A DNA stretch of 43,465 nucleotides. Source: a virus (lineage: Duplodnaviria > Heunggongvirae > Uroviricota > Caudoviricetes). The notes under the pieces were generated by a model. The model was not told where the DNA came from and did not search any database. It saw only the letters and a list, made by a program, of their open reading frames with translations. The stretch lies in IMG/VR virus record IMGVR_UViG_2563366823_000003, one strand, 5' to 3'. This document shows positions 1,068 to 42,898 of the stretch, piece by piece (position 1 is the stretch's first letter; each line of letters begins with the position of its first letter). Position numbers and translations under genes: made by a program.

Positions 1068-1098
1068 AAAAAGAGACCGAACACGATTCCTGTTTTCG
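1068..1098. repeat. attL: left copy of the att core (3'-terminal segment of sdsR)
   Basis: aaaaagagaccgaacacgattcctgttttcg repeats 42864-42898 with 2 mismatches and one indel; host-type end ggtctcttttt retained on the minus strand. Confidence 0.7.
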
Positions 1099-1397
1099 TC
1101 AACAAACAACAAAATCTTTTAGAATTAATGTGTTAAATAAATTTATGCTCATCTTTTAATCCCTAACACATACCATTACATATTAATACATTCAATTAGT
1201 TACCATTTTTTTCGAGTTTTTTAGAGAAATTTTCGGGAATATTTCAGATCAATCCATGCATACACAAGCAATTCCTGTATTGAATAATTCCGTAGCAATT
1301 ATGTAAAATCACCTCCGGCTGATTTTCATTCAAACTCGCGCTATCGAACGTCCATCAGCCAGCCGTGGCACGTTCTTGCATACGACGTGCTACGGTT

Positions 1398-1527
1398 TCA
1401 TTTATCTCCGACCGGAAACTTCTTATACAAAGTCGATACGCCAACATCATAGATGATCGCCACCTTCTGGCGAGAAACTCCTGATGCAATTAGTCGTCCA
1501 GCCTGCGCCCATTGCTCCGGCGTGAGA
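1398..1527 (-). pseudogene. pin: 3' remnant of a Pin/Gin/Hin-family DNA invertase (C-terminal HTH only)
   Basis: Minus-strand translation LTPEQWAQAGRLIASGVSRQKVAIIYDVGVSTLYKKFPVGDK* matches the recalled C-terminus of E. coli Pin; no N-terminal resolvase domain upstream. Confidence 0.7.
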
Positions 1528-1610
1528 GTAAGACAGTAAACTGTAGAAAAATCTCATTAAACTTAATATAATAATAAGTTACAGAATTATCTTTACTGAA
1601 TAATAGATAT

Positions 1611-2156
1611 ATGAACATTAGTGAACTTAAAAACTGTATACACTATGAAGTAATAGGTTATAAACGCCCTTTCTCCTGGCGAAAAGCAATTGTTCGCGCA
1701 ATAAAACACAGAAGATTACGTTATTTATTTTGGTGGCGCATAGCAAAATATCTTTTTGATAAAGGCGGATACCGGCGAAAGGTTGCAGGAAAAATAGAAC
1801 GCTTCATTCTTGATAAATACAATGTAACCGTTCCCTTAACTGTAAATATTGGTAAAGGGTTCGACATATCTTATCTCAATGGCGTTGTTATCGGTCACAA
1901 AGTTACAATAGGTGAAAATTGTTCAATTAAGCCTGGAGTAACTATTGGACTTCGCGGTGAATTTAATGATATGGATATTGTCATAGGAAATAATGTAACC
2001 ATCGGCTGTAACGCCACCATCCTTGGTGGCAAAGTGCATATAGGGAATAATGTAAAAATAGGAGCTCATGCATTAGTACTGCATGACATTCCTGATGACT
2101 CCACATTCATTACTAAATTTCACTCTGAAATTATTTATAACTCATCTCACACATAA
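1611..2156 (+). CDS. hexapeptide-repeat (left-handed beta-helix) acyl/acetyltransferase; low-GC cargo gene
   Basis: 181 aa with repeated [LIV]G-x-x-x-x hexapeptide units (VIGHKVTIGENCSIKPGVTIG, VIGNNVTIGCNATILGGKVHIGNNVKIG); AT-rich relative to flanking phage genes. Confidence 0.75.
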   Translation: MNISELKNCIHYEVIGYKRPFSWRKAIVRAIKHRRLRYLFWWRIAKYLFDKGGYRRKVAGKIERFILDKYNVTVPLTVNIGKGFDISYLNGVVIGHKVTIGENCSIKPGVTIGLRGEFNDMDIVIGNNVTIGCNATILGGKVHIGNNVKIGAHALVLHDIPDDSTFITKFHSEIIYNSSHT

Positions 2157-2238
2157 TTCCGTTTAATCACAGCTCTGGCCATACGATATCCGGGGCTGTA
2201 TTTATATCAATCCGACTCACTAATACCCGGTATTTTTT

Positions 2239-2739
2239 CTAGGAAGATAGCATCGAGACTTCCTCATCAGTTGCCATTTCAAAATTAACAGCATCCTGCA
2301 GAATTGTTATGTTATCAGTCGCTTCCTGGATTAATCTTGCCTTTTTCTCTTCCGCCTCCCGGATCCGGAACAGTTTTTCTGCTTCTGCATCTTTCACCCA
2401 AGCTGTGCCGTTCCACTTCTGAAACTCCCCATCCGGCGACAACCAGGTGACATTTTCCGGTAATGGGCCAAGTTCAGAAATAAATAACGCGTCCCCTGAT
2501 GCCACGTCATAAACCGTTTTACCCCGATGGTCTTCAACGAGATGCCACGATGCCTCATCACTGTTGAAAACAGCCACAAAGCCAGCCGGAATATCTGGCG
2601 GTGCAATATCGGTACTGTTTGCAGGCAGACCTGTATGAGGCGGAATATATGCGTCACCTTCACCAATAAATTCATTAGTTCCGGCCAGCAGGTTATAAAT
2701 TTTTATGGTCCGTGCTTGTTCACTCATTCTGAATGCCAT
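2239..2739 (-). CDS. tfa: tail fibre assembly protein (lambda Tfa family)
   Basis: N-terminus [57 protein letters not shown] closely matches recalled lambda Tfa; ATG overlaps the stop of the upstream fibre gene. Confidence 0.85.
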
Positions 2740-3836
2740 TATGCGAGCCTCACAATATAGTTAAATGCGATGTTTTTGACGGTGTTTTCCGCGTTACCAG
2801 CAGCGTTAACGGTGATGGTGTGTCCATGTGAACCAATCGCAACAGAGTGCGTATGTGCACCAATAGCGACAGTATGTGTATGCGCCCCAGCACTTGCTGC
2901 AGTACCTGATACTGAGTGGGTATGCGCGCCAGCAGAATTCGTTGCACCTAAGTGAGTTTGAGCAGAGTTCGACGAAGCTACTCTACCGGAGCTAACGTTA
3001 GCATTATCCCCCTGAGATATCGGATGCGTATGTGCACCTGCTGAAGCTGCTGTTCCGCTAACGCTATGGGTATGCGCACCAGTGTTATTCGTAGATTTAG
3101 TTCCATAATCAAACGATGATGTGTTTTTTGTCCCTAAATCTGTATTGGAAGCACTGGCGCTGTGGGTGTGCGATTTAATGCCGTCCTGTTCCTGGCTAAG
3201 AACATCACGTCCACTTGCAGGCTTACCTTTGATTGTCCAGCCACGCATATCAGGGATCACGCCTGACGGATAAGCGGCTGCAAGTTTCGGGTATGCAGAC
3301 TTGTCAAAAGTCTGTCCCTGCATCAGAGCATAACCAGATGGAACTGTATCTGATGGCCACGGGATCGGGGCACCTACAGGAAAGGTCGAATTATTTTCCA
3401 AACCAAGATATTTAAGGACATCAGCAACAGAGCTTTTTGCCAAAATATCTCGCCCAACCTGTGTCAGGTCAGCCAAATTAGCGGTATCTTGATTGGTAAA
3501 ATACGGTAATTTGTTTTCGGATGCTGAAAGATTAGCAAGTGCGGTAAGTATGGCATTAATTCTCTGATAGTTCTTATCTAATGCAGACGACATTTTTGCG
3601 ATAAATCCGGCCTGATCGCCATCGTCCTGTACATCCAGTCCACTTTCATTTGCTGTATATTGTGCCATTGCAGATGCAATAAAGCTGGCCTGCCGAATAA
3701 CCTTATTGACTTGCGCACTGGATGCTTTCCCTGCTGTAAATCCGGATAAAAGCGCAGGTAATGCTTCCCATTCCTCCTGCGACATAACATTGGCATTCCG
3801 ATCAGTTGCAAACGCTTTAAAGTCATTTTTCGCCAT
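2739..3836 (-). CDS. side tail fibre protein with His-rich C-terminal repeats (GAHTHS x5)
   Basis: 365-aa ORF immediately upstream of tfa; repeated [15 protein letters not shown] units; start placed at ATG 3836 overlapping the upstream stop (TGATG). Confidence 0.8.
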
Positions 3837-4516
3837 CAGAGTAATACTCCCCATGCCCCTACATCAAAACCACTGATAAATTCGTTATCCATATCAAAAC
3901 CAAAAAATTTTGAGCCTTCCGATGGAGTTTCCACCGAAGGTGTTTCAATGCCACCCGCCCACACCCCGGCGGCTTTTACTGTGAGATATCCCTGTTTAAT
4001 TGCAGCAATTAACTCACGCGATACATCTGAAATATCAGTATCAGGAAAGACCCAGACCGATATCGTCATGTCCTGGTTATCGACAATCTGCATTCGCAGC
4101 CCGGATCCTGCTGTCGCCGCGTCAAGAATTGCTGGAAGCGAATCATTCCGTCCGTCCCAGTTATTAATCGCAATCTTCGCTTTAAGGATGGCACGATAAG
4201 TTTCATCGCTGAGGTACATGTATCCGGAATCAGGATCGTATGGTCCCTGCCATACACCCTGATCATATCCAAGCCCGTCGGTATCCCAGCTGAAATAGAC
4301 ACCTGAGATAGGCTGGCTGACAACACGGCTACGTCCGATCCACAATCCCAGAATGTCAAGTTGCACACCAACCGCAGAGTCAATATCAAATGCAGTAATC
4401 AGCCCTCTGGTGGCAGCCGCAACATCAATAAGCGGCCGGGTCATCAGATCAACATGTGCAAGAAATTTAGGTTTGGTGGCGTGATAGTTTGTGATTAGTT
4501 CGGTGTATTTGCTCAT
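3836..4516 (-). CDS. putative tail/baseplate protein (Mu gp48-like position, YmfQ-like)
   Basis: 226-aa ORF between the baseplate J-like gene and the tail fibre gene, overlapping both; family assignment from recall only. Confidence 0.5.
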
Positions 4517-5712
4517 GACTCCACCGTTATAACGATATTTTCCGGGGTACAGGACGCAGATTCGTTATATCTGATATCAATGTTTGATGACGACAAAGCC
4601 CCCGGGGATTTCCCAATCGTCAGTTCCTGAATATCGTAATAGCGTGCATTCCCGCCACTCGCCACGCCAAGATTCGCCGGTGAGTAAATGCGACTTAAAA
4701 GGACTGAATCACCAATCGTCAGACTATTGATATAGTCGGAAATAGCCTGCTGGATCTGCTGCCCTATCTGTGAGGTATAACCCGTAAAAACTTTTAATTT
4801 AATCCGGGCATAAACAGGCACATCACTGGAACGCGAGAATTTGATTACATGGGGATTGCCGTATTTATCCGGAACCGTAACGGATGTTGTACCGTGAGTG
4901 GCTGTCCCCTGGCCTTTATTCCCTCTGATAGCCTGAGCAATATCCGTCACATCACCGCCATCCACAATTACAGCAACAGAGTGTGGCGGTAACCCGTTAC
5001 CGTCCTCCGAACCAGTATCGTTTTCATAGAGTTTGTGGCGGGTTACACCGGTAACATTAGAAACAGCACCATCCAGTGCTTCAAATGGGGTTATTGATGG
5101 CAACGCAACACTTTGCGACTGGCGGATACGTAACTCCGCGTCAGTTTCTGCCGGAGTGCCCACAGTAGCCGCAGCAGGATTAGTTACCGAAACCCAGCCA
5201 CGGGTTGGCGTATTAATTTCAGTGATAGTTCCAGCCAGCGCCGCCACTGCACCACTGACGGAACATGTTGCGGTCACCATCACTGTACCATCCACGCCGA
5301 CCACCACTGAAGCAGGCAAACGCCATATCACATTATTACTGTCTTTCACGCTGCCATTAATGATGGTTGTTCCGGCAGTTCCTGTAAGAAGCAAATCAAC
5401 CGTAGAATTCGTCGCGCCTTTACGTGAAATACCATTTATTTTCACGTTACTGGTCAGTGCGGCCCCATAGCCGGTTGCTGGTGAAAAACAGTTGTAGACA
5501 GTTATCGCCATATTATTGGCATCATGAATCGCCAGCGCTATCAGAGCCACCATCTGACCGTCTTTACTGTCCGGTTCGAGGTAGGCATCACTACCATAAA
5601 TCTGCTGAAAATAGCTAATCAGGGTGCTGAGTATCGTCTGATAATCAGGCGCACTGATCCCCTCCGCGGTTACCTTTGCAGATAAACCGAGAGAATCAAG
5701 GTTCAGAGCCAT
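4513..5712 (-). CDS. baseplate J-like protein (Mu gp47 / P2 gpJ family)
   Basis: 399-aa ORF in conserved baseplate gene order; size and position typical of baseplate J. Confidence 0.6.
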   Translation of the reverse strand: MALNLDSLGLSAKVTAEGISAPDYQTILSTLISYFQQIYGSDAYLEPDSKDGQMVALIALAIHDANNMAITVYNCFSPATGYGAALTSNVKINGISRKGATNSTVDLLLTGTAGTTIINGSVKDSNNVIWRLPASVVVGVDGTVMVTATCSVSGAVAALAGTITEINTPTRGWVSVTNPAAATVGTPAETDAELRIRQSQSVALPSITPFEALDGAVSNVTGVTRHKLYENDTGSEDGNGLPPHSVAVIVDGGDVTDIAQAIRGNKGQGTATHGTTSVTVPDKYGNPHVIKFSRSSDVPVYARIKLKVFTGYTSQIGQQIQQAISDYINSLTIGDSVLLSRIYSPANLGVASGGNARYYDIQELTIGKSPGALSSSNIDIRYNESASCTPENIVITVES

Positions 5713-6065
5713 TACGCCTCCGATGTAACAGTCGTTATTCCATAGAGAGTGTCGATTTCAGCGGAAAACATGACACGTCGGGTCGTGGTATCCACCGTCG
5801 TATTGAAAGAGAGGATTGATTTAACGCCCCGCGTTTCGAGGATGCGCTTACGGATCGCCAGGTTGTAGGTTTCCGGCTTCTGCTTACCGAGCACGGACTG
5901 GATCCACGGAGTCCCTTCGGTGGTGTCGAGAAACCATTGCCCATACCACAATTCGAATCGCGTTTTCACAGCCTGTGCTACGGCCTCAGGCGAGTTAATC
6001 AGCCAGGTGTCATCACCGCTGCCAAAGGTGTAATCGCCATCGGCGTCTTCACGTCTGTATCGCAT
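5712..6065 (-). CDS. putative baseplate protein (Mu gp46-like position)
   Basis: 117-aa ORF translationally coupled to flanking baseplate genes. Confidence 0.45.
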   Translation of the reverse strand: MRYRREDADGDYTFGSGDDTWLINSPEAVAQAVKTRFELWYGQWFLDTTEGTPWIQSVLGKQKPETYNLAIRKRILETRGVKSILSFNTTVDTTTRRVMFSAEIDTLYGITTVTSEA

Positions 6066-6817
6066 CAGTTTACCCCATCGGTATTGCTTCCACCGCGCTG
6101 AACACCACCATGAGTGTGCGTATCATCGATTGGCTTGCCGTTAGCCTTCACGCTCCCCAAAAACTCAACAGCACCAGTGATTTTTGAAGCCACACCAGAA
6201 ACCACAGACCCCACCATGCCCCCCAACCAGGTTAACAGGCCATGAATGGTTACTTTCTCAGAAAAATCAGCCAGAGGGGCAACCACATCAAGACCACCCG
6301 GAGCGACAATTTTAATTTTCCCGGTATCAGGATTAAGCTCAAAATAGGTGCTGCCATCGTCACTACGCAACTGTGTGGCACTGGTATTAATACCGCTAAT
6401 CTTCCTAGCCTGCGACTGGGGACCGACAATACAAAACGCATCCGATAAATCATGCATTCTGTCATCAACAGGCTCCTGTATCCCGCCGTTCTGCCACCAG
6501 AAATCAATACAACGATCGGCAAAAACGACAAGACACTCATCCCCAGCTTTTACCGGAAAAGTCAACGTACAGCCTCCGCCGCGCGGGAATACCACTGGCA
6601 CATCCACCAGCAATGGGTAATTTTTGGTAATGCGGTTACCGTAGTTATCCTTTTCAACCGAACGGATAGCTGGCTGCACAACCGCCGTCACCGCGTCAGG
6701 ATCGAATGACTGAATAATGCCAGGCAAGGCGACGCGGATCTGGTTCTTTGTTGTTTCCCGCTCGGACTTGAATGTTTCGGCAAGGTCACCGCTACGAGTC
6801 TGGTCTGATATGGCCAT
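6065..6817 (-). CDS. putative baseplate spike/hub protein (Mu gp45-like position)
   Basis: ORF with AGGAG 8 nt upstream of ATG 6817; the track start at 6850 is less likely. Confidence 0.45.
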   Translation of the reverse strand: MAISDQTRSGDLAETFKSERETTKNQIRVALPGIIQSFDPDAVTAVVQPAIRSVEKDNYGNRITKNYPLLVDVPVVFPRGGGCTLTFPVKAGDECLVVFADRCIDFWWQNGGIQEPVDDRMHDLSDAFCIVGPQSQARKISGINTSATQLRSDDGSTYFELNPDTGKIKIVAPGGLDVVAPLADFSEKVTIHGLLTWLGGMVGSVVSGVASKITGAVEFLGSVKANGKPIDDTHTHGGVQRGGSNTDGVN

Positions 6818-6830
6818 TTGATAAACTCCT

Positions 6831-6858
6831 GAAAACAAAAAACCCGCCAAGTGGCGGG
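6831..6858 (-). terminator. rho-independent terminator closing the inserted moron
   Basis: Perfect 7-bp stem acccgcc/ggcgggt with 4-nt loop, followed on the minus strand by TTTTTTGTTTT. Confidence 0.6.
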
Positions 6859-6878
6859 TCTACAGGAACAACTCTAAG

Positions 6879-7050
6879 TTTATTTTTTCTGTTTAAAATT
6901 GTCCAACTCAGGTTCTTTAACGCTTTCTGTCATGTAATCCAATCCATCAAAAGGTACTTCAAGCATTATACTGCTTTCATAATCAGCCATGGATTGCTCT
7001 GCTTGCGTTGGCTTACTTTGCTGTGAGTTGTCATTATTTGATGTTGTCAT
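6879..7050 (-). CDS. small acidic hypothetical protein (56 aa), distal gene of the moron
   Basis: ORF MTTSNNDNSQQSKPTQAEQSMADYESSIMLEVPFDGLDYMTESVKEPELDNFKQKK, below the track size cutoff; starts 3 nt after the upstream stop and is followed by the terminator. Confidence 0.35.
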
Positions 7051-7053
7051 CAA

Positions 7054-7608
7054 CTATGCCTTATTTATCAAAAGAAAAGTAACCGATAATATGAAAAAAC
7101 CGAAAGATAACGCAATTCCTTCAAAAAGATAACGAGCATAAACTGCCTTTTCTTTATGAAGACTTTCGATCAATTCAACAGCTTTACCATACTGAAACAT
7201 ATGGTATCTAAGCGTTTTAATTTTATCACCGTAAAGTAAAAAATCATGCTCTTCTTTTCGCTTATGAATAGGCATTTTTGGTATATCTTTCAGTCCCCAA
7301 GTACGCCATAGGAAAAAAAAGCACATAACAATACAAACAAAGCACAGATATGCACAAAGTATAGATAATGTTAAAAACCAATTACTCTTTAGCCCACTTT
7401 TGAAATCAACAGTCCCAAATACAGCCAGTAGAGCAGAGGTTTCTACAGCTAAAATAGCAAGAAGGTAGTTAACTTTGTCCTCAAGACGACGATATGTTGA
7501 TTTTGCTTCCTCATATCTATCTTTATAATATGACGAAATAAAATCAGCGCCTATAGTCTCAATTGCCTTTTGTTCTTCTGTTGTATCTATTGGCGAACGC
7601 TTGCTCAT
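7054..7608 (-). CDS. hypothetical integral membrane protein (2-3 predicted TM helices); low-GC moron
   Basis: 184 aa with hydrophobic stretches LLAILAVETSALLAVFG, FLTLSILCAYLCFVCIVMCFFFLW and IALSFGFFILSVTFLLI; markedly AT-rich compared with flanking baseplate genes. Confidence 0.6.
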   Translation of the reverse strand: MSKRSPIDTTEEQKAIETIGADFISSYYKDRYEEAKSTYRRLEDKVNYLLAILAVETSALLAVFGTVDFKSGLKSNWFLTLSILCAYLCFVCIVMCFFFLWRTWGLKDIPKMPIHKRKEEHDFLLYGDKIKTLRYHMFQYGKAVELIESLHKEKAVYARYLFEGIALSFGFFILSVTFLLINKA

Positions 7609-7615
7609 TTCTTAA

Positions 7616-7963
7616 TCAACCAACAACTTTCTTACACGGGAAAGAGCCAATAATTTTCGGAGCATCCATGCTGTTCTGCAACAACTGGACGTTCAGGAAA
7701 CGCGTTTTAGTGCCCGGTCGATGGATATACTCGAACCCATAATTGTTGCCATCTTTGGCAGGCATCAGCTCCATTTTGATCTGCATGCCTGTACCGTCTT
7801 TACCCAACATTTTTACTTTTTGGGACGTTACTGTTTCGCCATTGATTTTAAATAATGAGTCAGGGATCGCATCCATACGAAAGTTGCCGCATTGCATCGT
7901 TATGGTGTTTGCACTTACACCAACAGACACTAACGCCAGCAATGAAAATATCCATCGTTTCAT
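7616..7963 (-). CDS. hypothetical secreted/periplasmic protein (115 aa) with Sec signal peptide
   Basis: Start at ATG 7963 (GAGAGGA upstream) gives MKRWIFSLLALVSVGVSA signal peptide; two Cys in the mature part; the track's longer N-terminus is unlikely. Confidence 0.55.
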   Translation of the reverse strand: MKRWIFSLLALVSVGVSANTITMQCGNFRMDAIPDSLFKINGETVTSQKVKMLGKDGTGMQIKMELMPAKDGNNYGFEYIHRPGTKTRFLNVQLLQNSMDAPKIIGSFPCKKVVG

Positions 7964-7965
7964 TT

Positions 7966-9030
7966 CTATAATCCTCTCTGCAAAGCAGTGCTGGATGGCA
8001 TATCCTGCGCACCGCGCGCTTCGCACATCATATCCATGTACCACGCCTGGCCCCTTGTGTCGCCAGTGTACATAATCCCGCGCACAATATAAACGCCATC
8101 CGTTGCGATGCTGGCAGGCTGCGATGTGGTGCCGCTTAGCGTGATATTTCCATCCGTGTTCTGGTCGGTGATCTGACCACCAGCCATCGCAATATCGTTG
8201 TTCGACAACGCGGTACGATACACTGAAACCTGATCCAGCTGAATGAGTCCGTTAACCCGGATGTTCGGATTAATAAGCGCGCGGACGTTTACGCCGTTAC
8301 CGATAGTCTGCTGCGGCATGCCAATAAGCCCGGTAGCGCTGTTGAGCACAATCGCTTCATGAACATATTCGTTATTCGCCACCATCTGGCGCTGGCCGTC
8401 CACGAATTGCCATGTTGCGCCACATTGCCCGGCTACGTTATCCATTAGATGCCGCGTCATGCCAAAGAGTACCCGCCCCCGGGGGAATACAGTAGCAGGC
8501 ATTTCAGGCGTCAGGCCTTCGGTCGCGCCTTTGGCTTCGAAGTCTTTCATCAGCGCACGGCTCACATCAGCGACCGTGTAACCGGCAGCCAGCGTCTGTG
8601 AGGTTATACTGGTGGCAAAAGCCAGATCTGTATCGGCTGCCTGAATCAGGACGTAGGTATCAACCGGACTGTCTTTTCCTGTGACCGAGTAGCGAATTTC
8701 ACCGCTGAAAATCAGTCCGTAGTTGCGGCCATCACTCTGGCCCACGTCCGCCGCGTCAACTTCCCGCACTGTCCCGACGTCGCTTGCCGACACCTCCGGC
8801 GCGATACCGTCGTAACCCGCAATCAGACGCACTTTCGAAAACTCCTGCCCGGTGATTCGGTTCACAGTATCTGCCGAGAGGTTATAAATTTTGATAGTCC
8901 CTACCCGGGACGCGCTGCTGATGTTGAACCAGTCGATCGTAAAGGTGACTTTAAAATCACTTAGCTCAATTCCCTGACCGTTCCCGTCCACAAGCTGCAG
9001 CTCGAAATGTCTCATCCAGTTCTGTGACAT
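7966..9030 (-). CDS. putative baseplate hub protein (Mu gp44-like position)
   Basis: ORF in the tail module; ATG 9030 preceded by GGAG, immediately after the upstream stop. Confidence 0.5.
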   Translation of the reverse strand: MSQNWMRHFELQLVDGNGQGIELSDFKVTFTIDWFNISSASRVGTIKIYNLSADTVNRITGQEFSKVRLIAGYDGIAPEVSASDVGTVREVDAADVGQSDGRNYGLIFSGEIRYSVTGKDSPVDTYVLIQAADTDLAFATSITSQTLAAGYTVADVSRALMKDFEAKGATEGLTPEMPATVFPRGRVLFGMTRHLMDNVAGQCGATWQFVDGQRQMVANNEYVHEAIVLNSATGLIGMPQQTIGNGVNVRALINPNIRVNGLIQLDQVSVYRTALSNNDIAMAGGQITDQNTDGNITLSGTTSQPASIATDGVYIVRGIMYTGDTRGQAWYMDMMCEARGAQDMPSSTALQRGL

Positions 9031-9032
9031 GC

Positions 9033-9335
9033 TTACTCCGTTGATACCAGTAAATGACTGCAACCGCCCAAGTCAGTTTTCGTGGGATAATCCTGTGTGT
9101 TGTCATCGCAGACCACCACCAGCTTAAAACCAAGCCCCATACAGGCGTACTGCGCCAGCAAGTCAGCACCAGTGACGAGAGGAATACCGGAGATTACCGG
9201 CTCCCCTCTGTCGTTCTGCAGGTCCATAATCCAGTAAAGATCGCGCCATATGATGCTAATCCGCCAGGTGACACCACCCAGGACGATGCTGAACTGCTGA
9301 TTGTCCGCTGTCAGCGGAATTTCCTGAATTGTCAT
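9033..9335 (-). CDS. hypothetical tail protein
   Basis: 100-aa ORF coupled between tail genes. Confidence 0.4.
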   Translation of the reverse strand: MTIQEIPLTADNQQFSIVLGGVTWRISIIWRDLYWIMDLQNDRGEPVISGIPLVTGADLLAQYACMGLGFKLVVVCDDNTQDYPTKTDLGGCSHLLVSTE

Positions 9336-12540: not shown

Positions 12541-12543
12541 GTA

Positions 12544-12984: not shown

Positions 12985-12994
12985 TCACTTCCCC

Positions 12995-14140: not shown

Positions 14141-14143
14141 AGC

Positions 14144-30709: not shown

Positions 30710-30799
30710 TTCACTACCGCCATTTCGAACGGCCTCCTGATGTTTTGAGGGTGCAGAAATCCCTCCGGTTAAGGATTATATTTTCAATAATAATGTTGA

Positions 30800-33182: not shown

Positions 33183-33188
33183 GGTCCA

Positions 33189-34818: not shown

Positions 34819-35238
34819 ATGGAAAAAGAAAACGAAAAAATTGCCGCTAGTAGGCTCAATGACAAAATTGCAATGCGTCTTAAAGAGCGCAGGCAGAAGC
34901 TTGGTTTATCTCAAGGAAAACTTGCTGAAATCTGCGGATGGACGCAATCGCGTATAGGTAACTATGAGGCGGGCAGCAGAAATGTTGGAGTGCATGACGC
35001 TGTCGTATTGGGAAAGGCTCTTGGCATATCTCCTCCTGAGCTCCTCTTTGGAGAACAGGAATCTTCTGAATTGTGGTTAAATGAATCCCAACGAAAACTT
35101 CTTGAGTTGTTTAACCAGCTACCGGGCTCAGAACAACAACGAATGATTGAGCTATTTGAAGTCCGGCTAAAAGAAATCGATGAGTATGTAGAAAAATATT
35201 TGAGAGGCAGGCTTAAAGATAATCCCCCACCGGAGTAA
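34819..35238 (+). CDS. prophage repressor, RacR-like (XRE-family HTH)
   Basis: 139 aa with HTH LGLSQGKLAEICGWTQSRIGNYE; no peptidase domain; divergent from cro-like gene. Confidence 0.7.
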   Translation: MEKENEKIAASRLNDKIAMRLKERRQKLGLSQGKLAEICGWTQSRIGNYEAGSRNVGVHDAVVLGKALGISPPELLFGEQESSELWLNESQRKLLELFNQLPGSEQQRMIELFEVRLKEIDEYVEKYLRGRLKDNPPPE

Positions 35239-35293: not shown

Positions 35294-35543
35294 TACCATC
35301 ATCATATGACACCCACCACAAAACACATTTCGTGTTGACACAAGAAAACGCATTGTGTTTAATAAGCATATCCAAACAACGCCCCACCAGAGAACGGCAG
35401 GACAATACCTCGAGTTATCCAGCCACTGAACAGGGCTAAGTAGCCAGCCTGAGGCATACGAACATGACGGCAGTTGTTGATTGATACAAAGCGCAGTAGA
35501 TAAAACGTTCCGCCACCCGGCGTTAAGGGGAAATGAGGTCAAC

Positions 35544-35699
35544 ATGGATACTATCGATCTTGGCAACAACGAATCTCTGGTATGTGGCGTGTTTCCCAAT
35601 CAGGACGGCACATTCACCGCCATGACATATACCAAAAGCAAAACGTTTAAAACCGAAGCTGGCGCACGTCGTTGGTTGGGAAGACATTCAGGTGAGTAA
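35544..35699 (+). CDS. small hypothetical protein (51 aa)
   Basis: ATG-initiated ORF MDTIDLGNNESLV... downstream of operator-like palindromes. Confidence 0.4.
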   Translation: MDTIDLGNNESLVCGVFPNQDGTFTAMTYTKSKTFKTEAGARRWLGRHSGE

Positions 35700-35700
35700 A

Positions 35701-35904
35701 ATGAACGAGACAGAATTAAAACACGTTATCGCTCTACTCCTAGAAGATGCAAAACGCCTCCAGCAACTGGAGCCAAATGCAGGCACTGGGGCACGCATCT
35801 GGCTGGCTAAAGAAGCGCTGGAATCTGGCGATTATGATAGCGAAGAAGCCTTCTACAAAGCAGAAGGCCGTGCAGGATATTCACCGGGTCTTGGCGGGGT
35901 ATAA
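35701..35904 (+). CDS. small hypothetical protein (67 aa)
   Basis: ATG 35701 with AGGTGAG upstream; the track start at 35692 is GTG. Confidence 0.4.
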   Translation: MNETELKHVIALLLEDAKRLQQLEPNAGTGARIWLAKEALESGDYDSEEAFYKAEGRAGYSPGLGGV

Positions 35905-35994
35905 ATACCATGCGCATTGACTGAATTCGCAAACAAAAACAGACGCGCGATATCTGGATAGTCGGTCTGCATAGTCAGATATCTGGCTGCGAAT

Positions 35995-36171
35995 TTAATA
36001 AATATCACCGCCCTTTTCGGAAACATAAGTTCCGTCCGGGAGTTGATTATACGAACCATCTCCATGGGGGATCGTTCTCCTGAATCCTAGTGAGAGCATA
36101 TATTTATGAAGCCCTTCGTAATCCTCTGGCTCAGCATTATATAGTTCTACTCTGGCGAGATACGTTGGCAT
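35995..36171 (-). CDS. small hypothetical protein (~58 aa) in the sieB-equivalent position
   Basis: Minus-strand ORF MPTYLARVELYNAEPEDYEGLHKYM... with AAGGAA upstream of ATG 36171; only opposite-strand gene in the early-left operon. Confidence 0.4.
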   Translation of the reverse strand: MPTYLARVELYNAEPEDYEGLHKYMLSLGFRRTIPHGDGSYNQLPDGTYVSEKGGDIY

Positions 36172-36571
36172 ATTCATTTCCTTACTGGTTGTGTGAGAAC
36201 TCCAGTAAAGATACCACCAAAGCCCGGAGGTGGTGAAATAAAACCGGGCACAACACGAAGGCGCATTTCTGGTATCCATAAAGAGTCGGTCTTGTCTGTT
36301 AAATTTAAATGGTGGGAGTGCGCCTCCGGTTGTAAATAACGACATTGCTTTGTGTAGTCTTTGGCGGCATCAGTTCTACTCCGTGGCTGCCCTGCCGCCC
36401 CTTTTTAAAGTGAATTTTGTGATGCGGTGAATGCGGCTAAGCGCACGCGGAACAGTTAAAAGCATCAGTGTTATGGGTGGATTATCCGGCGTTAATTGTT
36501 AACTGGTTAACGTCACCTGGAGGCACCAGGCACCGCATCGACAAAATTCATTTGTAAAAATGGAGATAATT

Positions 36572-36793
36572 ATGATTGCTCATCACTTCGGAACTGATGA
36601 AATACCACGTCAGTGTGTGACCCCTGGCGATTATGTTCTTCATGAAGGTCGGACATATATCGCCTCGGCAAACAATATTAAAAAGCGAAAACTTTATATT
36701 CGTAGCCTGACTACAAAAACATGCATTTCTGACTGCATGATTAGAGTCTTCCTCGGTCGTGATGGTTTACCTGTAAAGGCGGAGTCATGGTAA
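36572..36793 (+). CDS. KilR-like small protein (73 aa)
   Basis: ATG 36572 with GGAGA upstream; size and position match Rac kilR (identity not verified). Confidence 0.45.
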
Positions 36794-36963
36794 TGACTAA
36801 GAAAATAAAATGTGCTTATCACCTTTGCAATAAAGAAATTGAAGAAAGCAAAATCATTACAAGACCACTTCATTTCATGCGTGGAGTTATACCAACGACG
36901 GAAATGAAAAAATATTGTAGTGAAATCTGTGCCGAAAAAAACCAGATGGCACACGAACTTTAA
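36794..36963 (+). CDS. small Cys-rich protein (56 aa), YdaE-like
   Basis: [12 protein letters not shown]...KYCSEICAEKNQMAHEL; below track cutoff; between kilR-like and racC-like genes. Confidence 0.5.
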
Positions 36964-37037
36964 TTAACTGACTATCCGAAACTGAATTTATGCCAGCAAT
37001 GGCAGGGATTCGCTCAACCTTAATTAAGGAGAAAAAC

Positions 37038-37313
37038 ATGATTACCAGTTATGAAGCCACTGTTGTTACTACTGATGACATTGTTCACGAAGTCAGCCTG
37101 GAAGGAAAACGTATTGGCTACGTGATTAAGACAGAAAATAAAGAAACCCCATTCACTGTGGTTGATATCGACGGTCCATCAGGCAACGTTAAAACACTTA
37201 ACGATGGTGTTAAAAAAATGTGTCTGGTGCACATAGGAAAGAATCTGCCCGCAGAAAAAAAAGCCGAATTTCTGGCAACTCTGATTGCAATGAAATTAAA
37301 AGGTGAAATCTGA
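37038..37313 (+). CDS. RacC-like protein (91 aa)
   Basis: ATG 37038 with AAGGAG 7 nt upstream; size and position upstream of recE match Rac racC. Confidence 0.5.
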   Translation: MITSYEATVVTTDDIVHEVSLEGKRIGYVIKTENKETPFTVVDIDGPSGNVKTLNDGVKKMCLVHIGKNLPAEKKAEFLATLIAMKLKGEI

Positions 37314-37412
37314 AAAAAAGAAAGCCTGCACACTGTGCAGGCCTGAGTGAAGAACCTGGGACATTTATTCATCACTCGCAGTAATTTTAATCTGAGTTGA
37401 GGTTAAAAAACA

Positions 37413-40067
37413 ATGAGCACCGATAAACAAGTTTACCCACTGTATTACGAAGCAAAAAATGACAAAGTAAGAAAACGTCTCGGTATTAAAGGCGGTTTCT
37501 ACTGGGCTGAAGCGAAAAAATTATCCATTGCCATCTCCCGTGGTGCTGTTGCGATTGACGATGCTGGCTACGATGAAGATGACTTTAAAAAACCTGTTCG
37601 CGTCAATTTGCCCGTTGTTGATGACCTTCCACCAGAAGGCGTATTTGATACGGAATTCTGCAACCGTTACGAAAAAGGCGGGGAAGATGGCATCACAATG
37701 GTATTTGTCGCGCCCTCACCCTCTGCGCAGGACAAACCAGCCAGCACTGACAATACCAATGTTAATGGCGAAGACATGACGGAGATTGAGGAAAATATGC
37801 TACTCCCGATTTCCGGTCAGGAGCTGCCCATTCGCTGGCTTGCTCAACACGGCAGCGAAAAACCGGTAACGCACGTTTCACGCGACGAACTCCAGGCATT
37901 ACACATTGCACGGGCTGAAGAACTACCAGCTGTTACTGCCCTGGCTGTTTCCCACAAAACCAGCCTGCTCGACCCGCTGGAAATTCGCGATCTCCATAAA
38001 CTGGTGCGTGATACTGACAAAGTTTTCCCTAATCCAGGCAATTCAAGCCTGGGGCTGATGACTGCTTTTTTCGAAGCATACCTGGACGCAGACTACACCG
38101 ATCGCGGTCTGCTGACAAAAGAGTGGATGAAAGGAAATCGTGTTTCACGCATCACGCGCACGGCTTCCGGTGCTAATGCTGGCGGCGGGAACCTCACCGA
38201 TCGCGGCGAAGGTTTCGTTCACGATCTGACGTCACTGGCGCGCGACGTAGCCACTGGCGTACTGGCTCGTTCAATGGACGTGGACATTTATAACCTTCAT
38301 CCGGCACACGCTAAACGTGTCGAGGAAATTATCGCTGAAAATAAACCGCCCTTTTCTGTTTTCCACGACAAATTCATCACCATGCCTGGCGGGCTGGATT
38401 ATTCCCGCGCCATCGTGGTTGCTTCCGTAAAAGAAGCACCAATTGGGATCGAGGTCATCCCCGCACACGTCACTGAATATCTGAACAAAGTACTGACTGA
38501 AACCGATCATGCCAACCCTGATCCGGAAATTGTGGATATTGCCTGCGGTCGCTCCTCTGCCCCAATGCCGCAGCGTGTAACAGAAGAAGAAAAACAGGAT
38601 GATGAAGAAAAACCGCAACCATCTTGCGCAATGGCAGATGAACAGGCAACGGCTGAAACAGTGGAACCGGATGCAACTGAACATCATCAGGACACGCAGC
38701 CGCTGGATGCTCAGTCACAGGTAAATTCTGTTGATACGAAATATCAGAAACTGCGGGCAGAACTCCATGAAGCCCGGAAAAACATTCCGCCCCAAAATCC
38801 TGTCGATGCAGACAAATTACTGGCTGCCTCTCGCGGAGAATTTGTTGAAGGGATTAGCGACCCGAATGATCCGAAATGGGTTAAGGGGATCCAGACCCGC
38901 GATTCTGTGTACCAGCATCAGCCAGAAACGGAACAGAACGACCTAAAATCGGAACAAAACGGCCAAAATGCGCGACAAAATGAACCAGAAGCGCAACAGG
39001 AACTGGAAAAAGTCTGCCATGCCTGCGGTCAGTCTGATGGAGATAACTGCCCTGATTGTGGCGCGGTGATGGGCGACATCACGTATCAGGAAACCTTTAA
39101 TGAAGAAAATCTGGATGAATCTCAGGAAAAAGATCCGGAGGAAATGGAAGGCCCTGAACATCCGCACAATGAGAATGCTGGCAGCGATCCGCATCGCGAT
39201 TGCAGTGATGAAACTGGCGAAGTCGCAGATCCCGTAATCGCAGGAGACATAGAGCCTGGTATTTATTACGGAATTTCGAATGAGAATTACCACGCGGGTC
39301 CCGGTGTCAGTAAGTCTCAGCTCGACGACATTGCTGATACTCCGGCGCTGTATTTGTGGCGTAAAAATGCCCCAGTGGACACCACAAAGACAAAAACGCT
39401 CGATTTAGGAACCGCTTTCCACTGCCGTGTACTTGAACCGGAAGAATTCAGTAACCGCTTTATCGTGGCACCTGAATTTAACCGCCGTACAACCGCCGGA
39501 AAAGAAGAAGAGAAAGCGTTTCTGATGGAATGCGCAAGCACAGGAAAAACGGTTATCACTGCCGAAGAAGGCCGGAAAATTGAACTCATGTATCAGAGCG
39601 TTATGGCTTTGCCGCTGGGTCAATGGCTTGTTGAAAGCGCCGGACACGCTGAATCATCAATTTACTGGGAAGATCCTGAAACAGGAATTTTGTGTCGGTG
39701 CCGTCCGGACAAAATTATCCCTGAATTTCACTGGATCATGGACGTGAAAACCACAGCGGATATTCAACGATTCAAAACCGCTTATTACGACTACCGCTAT
39801 CACGTTCAGGATGCATTCTACAGTGATGGTTATGAAGCACAGTTTGGAGTGCAGCCAACTTTCGTTTTTCTGGTTGCCAGCACAACTATTGAATGCGGAC
39901 GTTATCCGGTTGAAATTTTCATGATGGGCGAAGAAGCAAAACTGGCAGGCCAGCAGGAATATCACCGCAATCTGAGGACCCTGGCTGACTGCCTGAATAC
40001 CGATGAATGGCCAGCTATTAAAACGTTATCACTGCCCCGCTGGGCTAAGGAGTATGCAAATGACTAA
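37413..40067 (+). CDS. recE: exonuclease VIII (RecE)
   Basis: 884 aa; C-terminal nuclease domain [22 protein letters not shown]...DVKTTADIQ...YHVQDAFY; immediately upstream of recT with ATGA overlap. Confidence 0.85.
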
Positions 40068-40869
40068 GCAACCACCTATCGCAAAAGCCGATCTGCAAAA
40101 AACCCAGGGAAACCGTGCACCAGCAGCAGTAAAAAATAACGACGTGATCAGCTTTATTAATCAGCCATCAATGAAAGAGCAACTGGCAGCAGCTCTCCCA
40201 CGCCATATGACGGCTGAACGAATGATACGTATCGCCACCACAGAAATTCGTAAGGTTCCGGCGCTAGGAAACTGTGACACCATGAGTTTTGTCAGTGCGA
40301 TCGTTCAGTGTTCACAGCTCGGCCTTGAGCCAGGTAGCGCCCTCGGCCACGCATATTTACTGCCTTTTGGTAATAAAAACGAAAAGAGCGGTAAAAAGAA
40401 CGTTCAGCTAATCATTGGTTATCGCGGCATGATTGATCTGGCTCGCCGTTCTGGTCAAATCGCCAGCCTGTCAGCCCGTGTTGTCCGTGAAGGTGACGAG
40501 TTTAGTTTTGAATTTGGCCTTGATGAAAAGTTAATACACCGCCCGGGAGAAAACGAAGATGCAGCAGTGACCCACGTCTATGCTGTCGCAAGACTGAAAG
40601 ACGGAGGGACTCAGTTTGAAGTTATGACGCGCAAACAGATTGAGCTGGTGCGCAGCCAGAGTAAGGCTGGTAATAACGGGCCGTGGGTAACTCACTGGGA
40701 AGAAATGGCAAAAAAAACGGCTATTCGTCGCCTGTTTAAATACCTGCCTGTCTCAATTGAAATCCAGCGTGCAGTATCAATGGATGAAAAGGAACCACTG
40801 ACAATCGATCCGGCGGACTCCTCTGTATTAACCGGGGAATACAGTGTAATCGATAATTCAGAAGAATAA
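40060..40869 (+). CDS. recT: single-strand annealing recombinase RecT
   Basis: 269 aa from [14 protein letters not shown]; matches recalled E. coli RecT. Confidence 0.9.
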
Positions 40870-40913
40870 TTCAGCCTGGCGGTGTAATGCACCGCCAACG
40901 TGAGACAGTTTTT

Positions 40914-41120
40914 ATGACAAAAATTATGAGATATGACGATGTTAAACCATGTCCGTTTTGTGGTTGTCCATCTGTTACGGTGAAAGCAATTTCAGGATAT
41001 TACCGGGCAAAATGCAACGGATGCGAATCCCGAACTGGCTATGGTGGAAGTGAAAAAGAAGCGCTCGAAAGATGGAATAAACGAACCACTGAAAATATTA
41101 ATGGAGGCGTTCATGTATAA
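40914..41120 (+). CDS. ralR: restriction alleviation protein Lar/RalR
   Basis: MTKIMRYDDVKPCPFCGCPSVTVKAISGYYRAKCNGCESRTGYGGSEKEALERWNKRT matches recalled Lar. Confidence 0.7.
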   Translation: MTKIMRYDDVKPCPFCGCPSVTVKAISGYYRAKCNGCESRTGYGGSEKEALERWNKRTTENINGGVHV

Positions 41121-41301
41121 AATTACTGCTACAATTGAAAAGGAAGGTGGCACTCCTACTAACTGGACAAGATATTCAAAATCTAAACTAACGAAATCAG
41201 AATGCGAAAAAATGCTCTCAGGGAAAAAAGAAGCAGGCGTTTCCAGAGAGCAGAAAGTAAAACTGATAAATTTTAATTGCGAGAAACTTCTGTCATCGTG
41301 A
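41113..41301 (+). CDS. small hypothetical protein (62 aa)
   Basis: ATG 41113 overlapping the lar stop; the track start upstream is non-ATG. Confidence 0.4.
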   Translation: MYKITATIEKEGGTPTNWTRYSKSKLTKSECEKMLSGKKEAGVSREQKVKLINFNCEKLLSS

Positions 41302-41407
41302 GTTACATCATATCCAAATTAGAACTTCATAGCTGATTATTAAAAATCAACCACACCCGCCAGTATTCTGTATATTTACTGGCGGTCATATCGTAAGAGG
41401 TATGGCA

Positions 41408-41689
41408 ATGAATCTTGTGACACTCAAAACTTGGGGAAGACTCAGATATCCGGATAACCCACCATCAATATCAACACTGAGACGATGGGCAAGGAATGGA
41501 AACATTTATCCTGCACCTGAACTACACGGGAGGAGTTACAGGGTGGTTCCGGAGGCTTTCTATATCAACCCAAATAAGGTTGATACCGATATAACACACC
41601 ACCAGCCTAATGGGCGACAAGGGAGAGACAGTCCGTTAATGGAGAAGTTAAAACATGCAGCGGAAAAAATACGATCCCAATTTGCCTAG
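41408..41689 (+). CDS. xis: excisionase (Xis-like)
   Basis: Small basic ORF overlapping the integrase start; AAGAGG 8 nt upstream of ATG 41408. Confidence 0.6.
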   Translation: MNLVTLKTWGRLRYPDNPPSISTLRRWARNGNIYPAPELHGRSYRVVPEAFYINPNKVDTDITHHQPNGRQGRDSPLMEKLKHAAEKIRSQFA

Positions 41690-42731
41690 AAACTTAACAT
41701 ATCGAAGGAGAGACAAAGCATATTACTGGCGCAACCCTCTCACGAAAGAAGAATTTACACTAGGTAAAATTTCAAGAAGAGATGCAGTAGCGCAGGCAAT
41801 TGAAGCAAATCATTATATATACAAAAACTACTCTCCTGCTGCCTTAATTGAAAAGCTGAAAGGGTTCGACTCATTTACTATGGCAGACTGGATTGAACGT
41901 TACAAAACGATTCTTATAAGGAGAAAAGTGTCCAGAAATACTTATAAAATTCGGGTAAATCAACTGGAGACAATAAAAGAAAAATTGGGAGGGATTTTAC
42001 TGACAGAAATAACCACTCGCCATATTGCTGAGTTTCTTGATTTGTGGATTGAAGGAGGGAAAAACACGATGGCAGGATCAATGCGTTCTGTGTTATCTGA
42101 TATGTTCCGCGAGGCCATTGTTGAAGGACGTATATCTCAAAATCCAGTAACGCCAACAAGAGCACCGAAAATAGTAGTTACAAGAGAACGACTGAAACTA
42201 AAGACATACAACTGCATCAGGGAGGCAGCAGATCAACTTCCGGCATGGTTCCCATTAGCTATGGATTTAGCCCTTGTAACAGGACAACGTCGCGAAGACA
42301 TAACGAATATGCGGTTCAGTGATATTTATGATGATCGTCTCCACATCAGGCAAATTAAGACAGGAATGATGATTGCTATCCCCCTGTCACTCAGACTTCC
42401 TGTCGCTGGTCTACGGCTTGGTACAGTAGTTGAACGCTGCCGCCTGGTAAGCCGGGGAGATTATCTAATCAGTGCCGGGATTAGAAAAAACAGCCCTGAC
42501 GGCAGCATTCACCCGGATGGCCTGACAAAAAAATTTGTCGCAGCCAGAAAATTAACAGGTATCCAGTTCAGTGAAAACCCACCAACTTTTCACGAGATCA
42601 GAAGTCTGGCTGGACGATTGTACAAAGAAACATGTGGAGAAGAATTTGCTCAGCGTCTACTTGGCCACACATCGGAGAAGACAACAAAAATGTATCTTGA
42701 TGAGAGAGAAAAAACGTACTTACTGCTCTGA
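41655..42731 (+). CDS. int: tyrosine integrase (lambda Int family)
   Basis: 358 aa; collinear with recalled lambda Int ([40 protein letters not shown] catalytic region); GGAGAAG upstream. Confidence 0.9.
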
Positions 42732-42863
42732 TTTTAACGTAAATGGATTGTTAAATGCATTTTGGTTGTGATATAACCAAAAAAGACCGGAATACAGAAA
42801 TTCGAGTAAATTTCGGGGAATTTCGGGGGAGACGTTTGCAACTGATTGATTTTAAATACAATT

Positions 42864-42898
42864 AAAAAAAGACCGAATACGATTCCTGTATTCGGTCC
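42864..42898. repeat. attR: right copy of the att core inside the sdsR terminator stem
   Basis: aaaaaaagaccgaatacgattcctgtattcggtcc matches 1068-1098. Confidence 0.7.

Follow-up and report, generated by a model that had tools for sequence, protein, structure and literature searches.

A mosaic prophage at the 3' end of Escherichia coli sdsR that pairs Rac-type early genes with a SEN34-type contractile-tail virion module

Introduction

Temperate Salmonella phage SEN34 was induced with mitomycin C, forms plaques, shows a contractile tail by electron microscopy, carries a lambda-like regulatory region and was described as the prototype of a new lambda-like cluster, 'temperate 26' (PMC5261728). 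Its genus, according to the International Committee on Taxonomy of Viruses (ICTV), is Brunovirus. A second described system, Salmonella phage PhiW104, integrates in the last 23 bp of the small RNA (sRNA) gene ryeB (sdsR), internal to ryeA (PMC7380047). Here we compare these phages, together with the K-12 prophages Rac, Qin and e14 and with phages lambda, SfV and Mu, to a prophage found in 43,465 nucleotides of DNA from a virus of the Caudoviricetes (IMG/VR record IMGVR_UViG_2563366823_000003; this whole stretch is called the window below). With a probability that we put at roughly 85%, the window holds a single temperate phage genome of ~41.8 kb that combines a lambda-type layout with Rac/Qin-type early genes and a SEN34-type virion, and that was integrated site-specifically. 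The phage genome is probably complete.

An initial annotation of the window had described a mosaic of lambda-like ends and lysis genes, a Rac-like early region, and a Mu-like head and contractile tail. That the genome is mosaic is borne out by the comparisons below, in which different segments have different nearest relatives. Three of the labels need revision: the virion module is of SEN34/Brunovirus type, the lysis cassette of SfV type, and the immunity region distantly DicA-like rather than RacR-like.

A prophage at the 3' end of sdsR

Window positions 1-1098 and 42863-43465 align to the empty pphA-yebY site of K-12 at 98.2% and 97.5%, respectively, with the E. coli core genes yebW and pphA flanking the element on the left and yebY on the right. 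In the junction alignment with K-12, a 32 bp stretch of K-12 sequence is duplicated at the prophage ends (29/32 bases identical) and constitutes the att core. Because this core is present at both ends, the prophage can be delimited to 1099-42862, so that the coordinates given in the initial annotation, 1068-42898, prove essentially correct. The core corresponds to the 3' end of sdsR, within the antisense gene ryeA and between pphA and yebY. The features of the site are as follows.

1067-1098: att repeat, int-distal (attR in the lambda convention), from the empty-site K-12 alignment
42863-42894: att repeat, int-proximal (attL), forming the 3' end of an intact sdsR, from the same alignment
42864-42963, minus strand: complete SdsR_RyeB (Rfam, 118 bits)
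42860-43004, plus strand: SraC_RyeA (Rfam)

At the int-distal junction the host side keeps the ryeA promoter and the first ~69 nt of RyeA (about 1030-1098). A tRNA attachment site was considered and rejected: ARAGORN, run on the whole window, returned no tRNA or tmRNA, and the att core lies in an sRNA gene instead. The sdsR/ryeA locus is an already known phage attachment site, since PhiW104 uses ryeA/ryeB and the 32-bp core lies at the same sdsR end; this comparison concerns the sites alone.

The integration genes adjoin the int-proximal repeat.

41402-42731, plus strand: excisionase and lambda-family tyrosine integrase with arm-binding domain (Pfam Exc, Arm-DNA-bind_1, Phage_int_M and Phage_integrase), int itself occupying 41655-42731

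These genes had been called lambda-type. This holds for their domain architecture, which is that of lambda's Int and Xis; by tblastn, identity to the lambda proteins is only 39% and 34%, and the attachment site differs, the insertion lying in the sdsR 3' end and not at the lambda attB between gal and bio. Int is ~41% identical to HK022 Int and 98% identical to Int of phage vB_Apl-pPE4. Rac integrates unlike the window prophage: its IntR gives no tblastn match to the integrase, and its ttcA site is also not used. Nor is e14 a closer source than lambda, sharing 0.6% of the prophage in DNA and, in protein, 40% (Int), 37% (Xis) and 34% (tfa) identity.

Gene order and nearest relatives

Read from the integrase end, the prophage runs from att through int-xis, a leftward early operon, a repressor facing the cro-position gene and the replication genes to a nin-type region with cargo. 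These are followed by a Q-like antiterminator, lysis genes, terS, terL, portal, head, neck, sheath and tube, and finally by tape measure, baseplate, tail fibre, tfa, an acetyltransferase moron and att. In the map of open reading frames (ORFs), annotated with Pfam, PHROG and tblastn, this is the gene order of a lambda prophage. In the classical sense, lambdoid phages are those that recombine with lambda to give viable progeny; what the prophage shares with lambda itself is limited to patches, namely R (87%), tfa (86%) and stf (60%) in protein.

The DNA coverage of the prophage by each relative is given below, with identity calculated over the covered part only.

E. coli FP4 prophage, same site: coverage 84%, identity 96%
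vB_EcoM-611R5: coverage 41%, identity 94%
SEN34: coverage 39%, identity 80%
vB_EcoS-666R9: coverage 27%, identity 92%
Rac (K-12): coverage 20%, identity 90%
Qin (K-12): coverage 4.2%, identity 89%
lambda: coverage 3.9%, identity 84%
SfV: coverage 3.2%, identity 89%
e14 (K-12): coverage 0.6%, identity 80%
Mu: coverage 0%

This whole-prophage comparison supports the mosaic description, in that SEN34, Rac, SfV and lambda match different blocks. In the phage collection searched, no characterised phage gives a close full-length match, and no phage record covers 80% of either half of the window. The arrangement is not unique, being shared by prophages at the same site such as that of FP4. Two of the relatives, 611R5 and 666R9, belong to a record series (ON4705xx-ON4706xx) named in a preprint that reportedly deals with phages located in clinical isolates of E. 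coli that produce carbapenemase.

The FP4 prophage (NZ_CP072686.1, 2256944-2299561; uncharacterised) shares the insertion site, int/xis (97-98%), the immunity pair (100%), Rac-type early genes, SfV-type lysis genes, the terminase (99-100%) and the SEN34-type virion module. It differs in lacking the acetyltransferase gene, the lambda/Rac-type fibre end with its tfa, the ORFs at 6880-7608 and the Kiwa block, and in carrying an ORF6N gene between the Q-like gene and the holin gene that the window prophage does not have. Its own recT is frameshifted and its own tail fibre truncated.

SEN34 shares the lambdoid layout and the contractile-tail virion and is collinear from portal to baseplate, with 80% DNA identity over ~16 kb. 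It differs in its lambda-type O/P replication genes, in Red exo/bet/gam, and in its integrase, immunity region, lysis genes, terminase (36%) and tail-fibre end. The product of coverage and identity to SEN34 comes to 30.8%. The ICTV groups phages into a genus at a nucleotide similarity of at least about 70% over the whole genome; 30.8% is far below this value.

Other relatives resemble the prophage over shorter stretches. Rac contributes similarity to the early region, where its RacR and YdaS are replaced by a different pair. In the 666R9 record the tail-tip genes (M, L, K, I) are of lambda type and the coat is of P22 type, which suggests a non-contractile tail. Shigella phage SfV shares the lambda-type layout, a contractile tail and a nearly identical lysis cassette; its tail genes are annotated as homologues of Mu L, N, P and gp45-48, unlike those of the window.

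Completeness of the prophage

The prophage has a complete set of genes, all full length, that serve integration and excision, immunity and replication, late control and lysis, as well as packaging and the formation of a contractile-tail virion. All 25 of the 25 virion ORFs that have a counterpart are full length in comparison with SEN34, FP4 or 611R5, as is every lysis, terminase, replication and int/xis ORF that was compared with its relatives; recT and the tail fibre gene are also intact.

One might nevertheless imagine that the element, like Rac in K-12, is cryptic and defective, can yield phage no longer, and persists on account of its cargo and recombination genes. Rac, the nearest relative of the early region, is cryptic, and the related FP4 prophage has lesions in recT and the tail fibre. 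The prophage itself carries a frameshift in kwaA, a gene of its defence cargo, and a 42-codon relic of an invertase gene, and its repressor has no autocleavage domain. However, the compared virion, lysis, terminase, replication and int/xis ORFs are full length, including in comparison with SEN34, which forms plaques; recT and the fibre gene are intact, both att repeats are in place, and the defects are found in accessory genes only. We regard a cryptic state as unlikely.

Several observations weigh against reading the element as a complete and functional phage and should be kept in mind. Decay is visible in kwaA and in the invertase relic, even if it is confined to such accessory parts. The repressor does not contain an S24 (LexA-like) autocleavage domain according to Pfam, so that it would have to be inactivated by an antirepressor or in some other indirect way upon induction; no antirepressor was identified, and neither were an N-type antiterminator and a packaging site in the prophage. 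Inducibility and the formation of SEN34-like myovirus particles are predictions from the sequence. Two of its close relatives, 611R5 and 666R9, are not treated as characterised viruses. Finally, across the collections searched, the prophage of any one genome covers at most 87% of either half of the window, and the exact variant is therefore known only from this window. If inducible, the prophage would be a live phage carrying Rac-type recET and kil genes.

The virion module resembles SEN34 and not Mu

The late genes, all on the minus strand, are listed here in the order of transcription.

21180-23298, minus strand: terminase large and small subunits (Pfam Terminase_3; PHROG 370 terS)
19714-21180, minus strand: portal (Pfam Phage_portal_3, E=4.5e-103; PDB Pam3 and E217 portals; 92% to SEN34)
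16391-19862, minus strand: head genes, comprising major capsid, cement/minor capsid, DUF2213 and Mu F-like head morphogenesis proteins
14144-16100, minus strand: neck/connector genes, comprising neck terminator, head-tail adaptor, Neck1-type and DUF4054 proteins
12088-14140, minus strand: tail assembly chaperone, tube and contractile sheath (Pfam Phage_TAC_15, KPP10_Orf10 and DUF3383, the last at E=3.5e-101)
9922-11931, minus strand: tape measure, 669 amino acids (aa), 91% to the SEN34 tape measure
7616-9922, minus strand: inner baseplate, comprising a 142-aa protein, hub, plug and Dit-like protein (Pfam E217_GP41, weak; Pam3_gp18; Dit_like)
3836-6850, minus strand: outer baseplate, comprising DUF2612, Baseplate_J, a wedge subunit (117 aa) and the central spike

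Twenty-three of the 25 virion proteins compared have a SEN34 counterpart at 61-96% identity; terL (36%) and terS (49%) do not fit this pattern. In DNA, the region from the portal (21180) to the N-terminus of the fibre (~3540) is 80% identical to SEN34 and 93-96% identical to 611R5 and FP4. The head genes belong to Pfam families PF09950 (E=2.5e-87), XM1_gp53/Phage_cement, DUF2213 and Phage_Mu_F, and the neck genes to Pfam Phage_tail_terminator_9 and DUF4054 and to PHROG 939 and 222. The FP4 homologue of the tape measure was named lytic transglycosylase by the Prokaryotic Genome Annotation Pipeline (PGAP). In the inner baseplate, hub, plug and Dit-like protein are 81-91% identical to SEN34 and the 142-aa protein is 61% identical; the outer baseplate proteins (Pfam DUF2612, Baseplate_J, PF18352 and the Apex motif, and PHROG 120 baseplate wedge) are 68-91% identical to SEN34, all at full length. 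With sheath, tube and baseplate genes present, the contractile tail type recognised in the initial annotation stands.

In a sequence search of the PDB, the nearest solved structures are those of Pam3, XM1, E217 and phi92. Matches were obtained for the capsid (Pam3, 8hdt), portal (8hds, 8fvh), sheath (XM1, 7kh1 at E=1.5e-41; Pam3, 8hdr), tube (Pam3, 8hdr) and wedge (7kh1, 7yfz, 8env), and Mu gp47 (9ki1) was the weakest match of the J protein (E=0.003). Pam3, XM1 and E217, whose hosts are cyanobacterial, Vibrio and Pseudomonas, share with the window the capsid, cement, portal, sheath, tube, baseplate plug and wedge families; they are distant from it (E=1e-9 to 1e-41), and their genome layouts differ. 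These comparisons assign the virion module to the SEN34 (Brunovirus) type and to the Pam3/XM1/E217 structural class, not to Mu.

The terminase comes from a different source than the rest of the module: DNA identity to 611R5 and SEN34 ends at ~21270, the portal/terL boundary, and terL shares just 36% identity with SEN34/611R5, as against 92% with temperate phages of the Wanchaivirus type from Klebsiella.

Could the virion be Mu-like all the same? The initial annotation amounts to a three-way mosaic, with lambda ends and lysis genes, a Rac early region, a Mu-like head and contractile tail, and cargo at the joins. There is a parallel to Mu in the order of terS, terL, portal, F-like gene, scaffold-position gene, capsid, neck, sheath, tube, chaperone, tape measure, hub, spike, wedge, J, fibre and tfa. 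In addition, a Phage_Mu_F domain and a Baseplate_J protein are present, the J protein being 26% identical to gp47 (tblastn, E=1.5e-4), the Rz1-like spanin is 48% identical to the gp23 region of Mu by tblastn, 40 residues of tfa align with Mu U (E=1.2e-4), part of a Gin-like invertase gene survives as a relic, and endolysin and tfa are 86-87% identical to those of lambda.

Three sets of observations argue against this model. First, Mu has no blastn match anywhere in the prophage, and tblastn against Mu yields nothing at E<0.05 for terminase, portal, capsid, sheath, tape measure, hub or spike, capsid and tube remaining without any match at E<5. Second, the Pfam families differ when assigned on both sides. 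Mu virion proteins fall into Portal_Mu, Phage_Mu_F, Mu-like_Pro, Mu-like_gpT, Phage_sheath_1, Tail_tube, GpP/GPD and Baseplate_J; those of the window fall into Phage_portal_3, Phage_Mu_F, DUF2213, PF09950, DUF3383, KPP10_Orf10, E217_GP41 (weak) and Baseplate_J. Shared families account for two of the eight Mu virion proteins that have a Pfam family, namely Phage_Mu_F (PF04233) and Baseplate_J (PF04865), both of which are widespread outside Mu and hence not diagnostic. Third, no window ORF matches the Mu transposase genes A/B, and the element has att repeats and an integrase. A Mu relationship is thus rejected by blastn, tblastn to E=5, two-sided Pfam assignment and the PDB sequence search, leaving two widespread domains and the weak gp47 match; as a claim of homology, the Mu-like head and tail do not hold. 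The parallel in head and baseplate gene order is real, but this late order is generic rather than specific to Mu because SEN34 and other simple myoviruses have it too.

SfV was considered as a source of a Mu-like tail and rejected: the head and tail proteins of the window find no match in SfV, its Mu-like tail included, the lysis cassette alone matching. With lambda covering just 3.9% of the prophage, an integrase at 39% identity and a different att site, the description of the ends as lambda-like is also overstated; the lysis cassette is of SfV type, and two of the three cargo blocks lie inside modules. We judge the three-way mosaic with a Mu-like virion to be very improbable.

A chimeric tail fibre

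The virion module changes character within the tail fibre gene.

2739-3854, minus strand: chimeric tail fibre, with an N-terminal attachment part of SEN34/FP4 type and residues 157-371 of lambda/Rac/Qin Stf type
2239-2739, minus strand: Tfa, tail fibre assembly chaperone (Pfam Caudo_TAP)
1363-1491, minus strand: relic of a Gin/Pin-family DNA invertase, C-terminal ~42 codons, LTPEQWAQAGRLIASGVSRQKVAIIYDVGVSTLYKKFPVGDK* (tblastx)

By tblastn, the fibre is 73% identical to FP4 over just 25% of the protein, 82% identical to Rac StfR (aa 157-371) and 60% identical to lambda stf (aa 33-371), and in DNA the source changes between about 3517 and 3540. The lambda/Rac-type end would set the receptor. 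The downstream tfa, which had been called lambda-type, is indeed 86% identical to lambda tfa in protein, and equally so to Rac TfaR and Qin TfaQ. The invertase relic, which adjoins the acetyltransferase gene, is 63% identical to Mu gin over 38 aa (tblastx, E=1e-12). The ancestor probably had an invertible tail-fibre segment that was lost here and that 611R5 still partly has.

Early region and immunity

The early and immunity genes are as follows.

41119-41297, minus strand: RalA antitoxin RNA (Rfam, 213 bits)
36560-41301, plus strand: Rac-type early-left operon of kilR, ydaE, racC, recE, recT, ralR (lar) and rcbA
36349-36400, plus strand: DicF/KilS-type small RNA upstream of kilR (Rfam DicF, 63.5 bits)
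35481-36400 including this small RNA, plus strand: DUF1391 gene (YdaF/YdfA-like; Pfam DUF1391) at the start of the leftward early operon
34819-35238, plus strand: prophage repressor, 139 aa, HTH_3 domain only (Pfam), distantly DicA-type
34061-34722, minus strand: ydaT (140 aa) and the cro-position HTH_3 gene (80 aa, 34480-34722)
31652-33983, minus strand: replication genes, comprising YdaW-like (DUF1627), YdaV (DnaC/IstB-like loader) and YdaU-like initiator proteins (Pfam IstB_IS21, PHROG 2509)

The operon that marks the Rac family (recE-recT, kilR, racC, ralR/RalA-rcbA) is present, and here the initial annotation was right to match kilR, racC, recET and lar to Rac. Protein identities to Rac are 94% for kilR, 95% for racC, 87% for recE, 98% for recT, 91% for ralR, 94% for rcbA, 95% for ydaT, 96% for ydaV and, at the lowest, 72% for ydaE. 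In DNA, 36210-41351 is 87.6-93.3% identical to Rac, save for an unmatched gap at 37421-37750 in the 5' part of recE. Similarity is patchier in the replication genes, where the YdaW-like protein is 92% identical to Rac over 62% of its length and the YdaU-like protein, the PHROG 2509 family standing for replication initiation, 81% identical over 46%.

The DUF1391 gene and the DicF-type RNA are 88-90% identical to Qin in DNA, the RNA alone being 90% identical to Qin dicF; in a blastn alignment it occupies the position of the Rac sRNA annotated kilS. As a side observation, the early-left operon may hold both an RNA (DicF-type) and a protein (KilR) directed at FtsZ.

The immunity genes depart from Rac. 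In tblastn searches against Rac, neither RacR nor YdaS resembles the repressor or the product of the cro-position gene, and this 80-aa gene matches neither Rac nor lambda. With Qin DicA the repressor shares 29% identity (E=1e-12), and its homologue is named DicA in one related record. RacR-type immunity is accordingly rejected: the repressor had been called racR-like, which is not upheld, and of the ydaS/T-like pair ydaT stands, whereas ydaS does not.

Lysis and late control

23522-24900, minus strand: lysis cassette of holin, endolysin, Rz-like spanin and embedded Rz1-like (LysC) spanin
25360-26788, minus strand: late control genes, comprising DUF1133 (Q-like antiterminator), YbcO and DUF1367 (Pfam DUF1133, Phage_antitermQ, YbcO and DUF1367)

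The lysis cassette had been described as lambda-like, with a lambda-type R endolysin. The endolysin is indeed 87% identical in protein to lambda R. The holin belongs to the lambda S Pfam family (PF05106), yet gives no pairwise match to lambda S, and neither it nor the spanins are those of lambda. In comparison with SfV, the cassette is 88.8% identical in DNA over 23595-24911, with protein identities of 97% (holin), 94% (R), 84% (Rz) and 74% (Rz1). We assign the cassette as a whole to the SfV type, with only the endolysin close to lambda. The late-control region is 94.6% identical in DNA to the Rac-type record 666R9.

Mosaic joins and recurrence of the combination

Changes of nearest relative along the prophage place its joins at the following positions.

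about 3517-3540: inside the tail-fibre gene, from SEN34/FP4-type to Rac StfR-type, matching the Tfa downstream
6859-7625: variable slot within the baseplate module
about 21270: portal/terL boundary
about 23600 and 24900: both ends of the lysis cassette
27717-30709: cargo of the nin region
about 34491 and 35372-36210: where the immunity region begins and ends
about 41351: rcbA/xis

Among 5426 complete E. coli genomes screened for prevalence, the structural core (12000-19000) is present at a coverage of at least 80% in 305 (~6%) and int/xis, at the same threshold, in 226. At least 80% of window positions 1-25000 is found in 22 of these genomes, and at least 80% of positions 20000-43465 in nine. 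The combination recurs across dog, pig, chicken, cattle and human isolates, and therefore represents a lineage rather than a one-off event. Two adjacent prophages, a prophage next to a remnant, or an assembly chimera would accommodate the fact that the best phage-record matches differ by half (611R5 for the virion, 666R9 for the early region), but any of these is extremely improbable, given one outer att pair, one int/xis pair, a single copy of each function, a continuous lambda-type order and the same join of the halves in independently assembled complete genomes from these hosts.

Single modules are also found with other partners. In 611R5 this virion module goes with an early region of polymerase/helicase type, in SEN34 with lambda O/P-Red, and vB_Apl-pPE4 combines the same integrase (98%) with a Rac-like early region and is absent among the 25 matches listed for the virion half. 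This reassortment pattern is the signature expected of modular exchange. With one virion module joined to at least three early regions and the receptor end of the fibre swapped, the prophage offers a clear example of such exchange. A patchwork of this kind is nothing unusual in temperate coliphages, and there are relatives that share the arrangement.

How might the single, site-specifically integrated phage genome that we favour have been put together? We suggest that the mosaic arose by ordinary modular recombination among enterobacterial temperate phages; each block occurs elsewhere joined to other partners. Rac-type are the genes for recombination, kil function and restriction alleviation, together with ydaT, ydaV and stretches of the ydaU- and ydaW-like genes, and short patches are Qin-type; the immunity genes are a distant DicA/DicC-type pair. 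The lysis genes are of SfV type, the terminase is of a type known from Klebsiella temperate myoviruses, and portal through baseplate belong to a SEN34-type virion with a simple contractile tail. The fibre keeps its own baseplate-attachment end and carries a lambda/Rac Stf receptor-binding end with the matching Tfa. Integrase and excisionase recombined the attP of the phage with the 32-bp core in the host, which is the 3' end of sdsR inside ryeA.

A separate observation concerns vB_Apl-pPE4 (PP818812.1), which is labelled as a phage of Actinobacillus pleuropneumoniae. Besides the integrase, its Rac-type early region is 93% identical in DNA to that of the window; because it resembles an E. coli prophage, its host label may be wrong.

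Cargo and variable regions

29846-31636, minus strand: other nin ORFs of 171, 58, 60 (DUF7167), 137 and 140 aa (DUF977) (Pfam, PHROG 660)
27943-29583, minus strand: Kiwa defence cargo, with kwaB intact (27943-28971) and kwaA split (29215-29583 and 28968-29246)
27380-27704, minus strand: hok/sok type I toxin-antitoxin (Pfam HOK_GEF; Rfam sok, 113 bits)
6880-7608, minus strand: variable slot in the baseplate module with ORFs of 57 and 184 aa (GC content 0.38)
1611-2156, plus strand: acetyltransferase cargo gene (moron), hexapeptide-repeat, 181 aa (Pfam Hexapep, E=1e-13)

The block of hok/sok, Kiwa and small ORFs (27380-30709) has Rac/666R9-type sequence on both flanks; 27717-30709 is missing from FP4, and within it 666R9 matches only 29770-29994. 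The hok/sok sequence is 98% identical in DNA to Qin hokD. PADLOC identifies KwaB (E=1.5e-159) and matches positions 2-122 and 116-204 of the KwaA profile in two separate ORFs; the frameshift near 29215-29246 makes kwaA either a pseudogene or the product of a sequencing error.

The slot at 6880-7608 sits between the baseplate hub genes and the spike. FP4, 611R5 and SEN34 have different small genes at this place and give no match to its ORFs, both of which match PHROG families of unknown function (18231 and 18554) at full length. As candidate defence genes they were rejected, the only lead being a weak PycTM match (E=9e-4) that we do not trust. The acetyltransferase gene, which is not in the FP4 prophage, lies between tfa and att, opposes the late operon and has a GC content of 0.36, with a promoter-like site ahead of it at 1544-1572. 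The proposal that module boundaries coincide with cargo insertions therefore holds for this gene, at the prophage end; the other two of the three blocks lie inside modules.

Counting ralR/RalA along with hok/sok, two type I toxin-antitoxin pairs are aboard.

A possible effect on the sdsR/ryeA/pphA circuit

The insertion site could affect the host circuit of SdsR, RyeA and pphA. Transcription of pphA in K-12 reportedly depends mostly on read-through that starts at the sdsR promoter, and the ryeA promoter is reported to restrain SdsR via antisense RNA and transcriptional interference (PMC6610125). In the window, 41.8 kb of phage DNA lie between sdsR (42864-42963) and pphA (277-936), and the ryeA promoter with the first ~69 nt of RyeA is separated from the part of ryeA that overlaps sdsR. 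It is conceivable, if on balance doubtful, that the insertion rewires the circuit, leaving lysogens with a de-repressed SdsR toxin sRNA and a pphA that is cut off from its promoter.

The ryeA promoter would also read into the phage end, toward the co-oriented acetyltransferase gene, and a scan of the plus strand between the two found no terminator. Given the promoter-like site ahead of that gene, its expression does not require such read-through, which is not shown here either. For PhiW104, a related effect on ryeA/ryeB has been published (PMC7380047); rewiring in the present case, if true, would extend that effect to E. coli and add no new principle.

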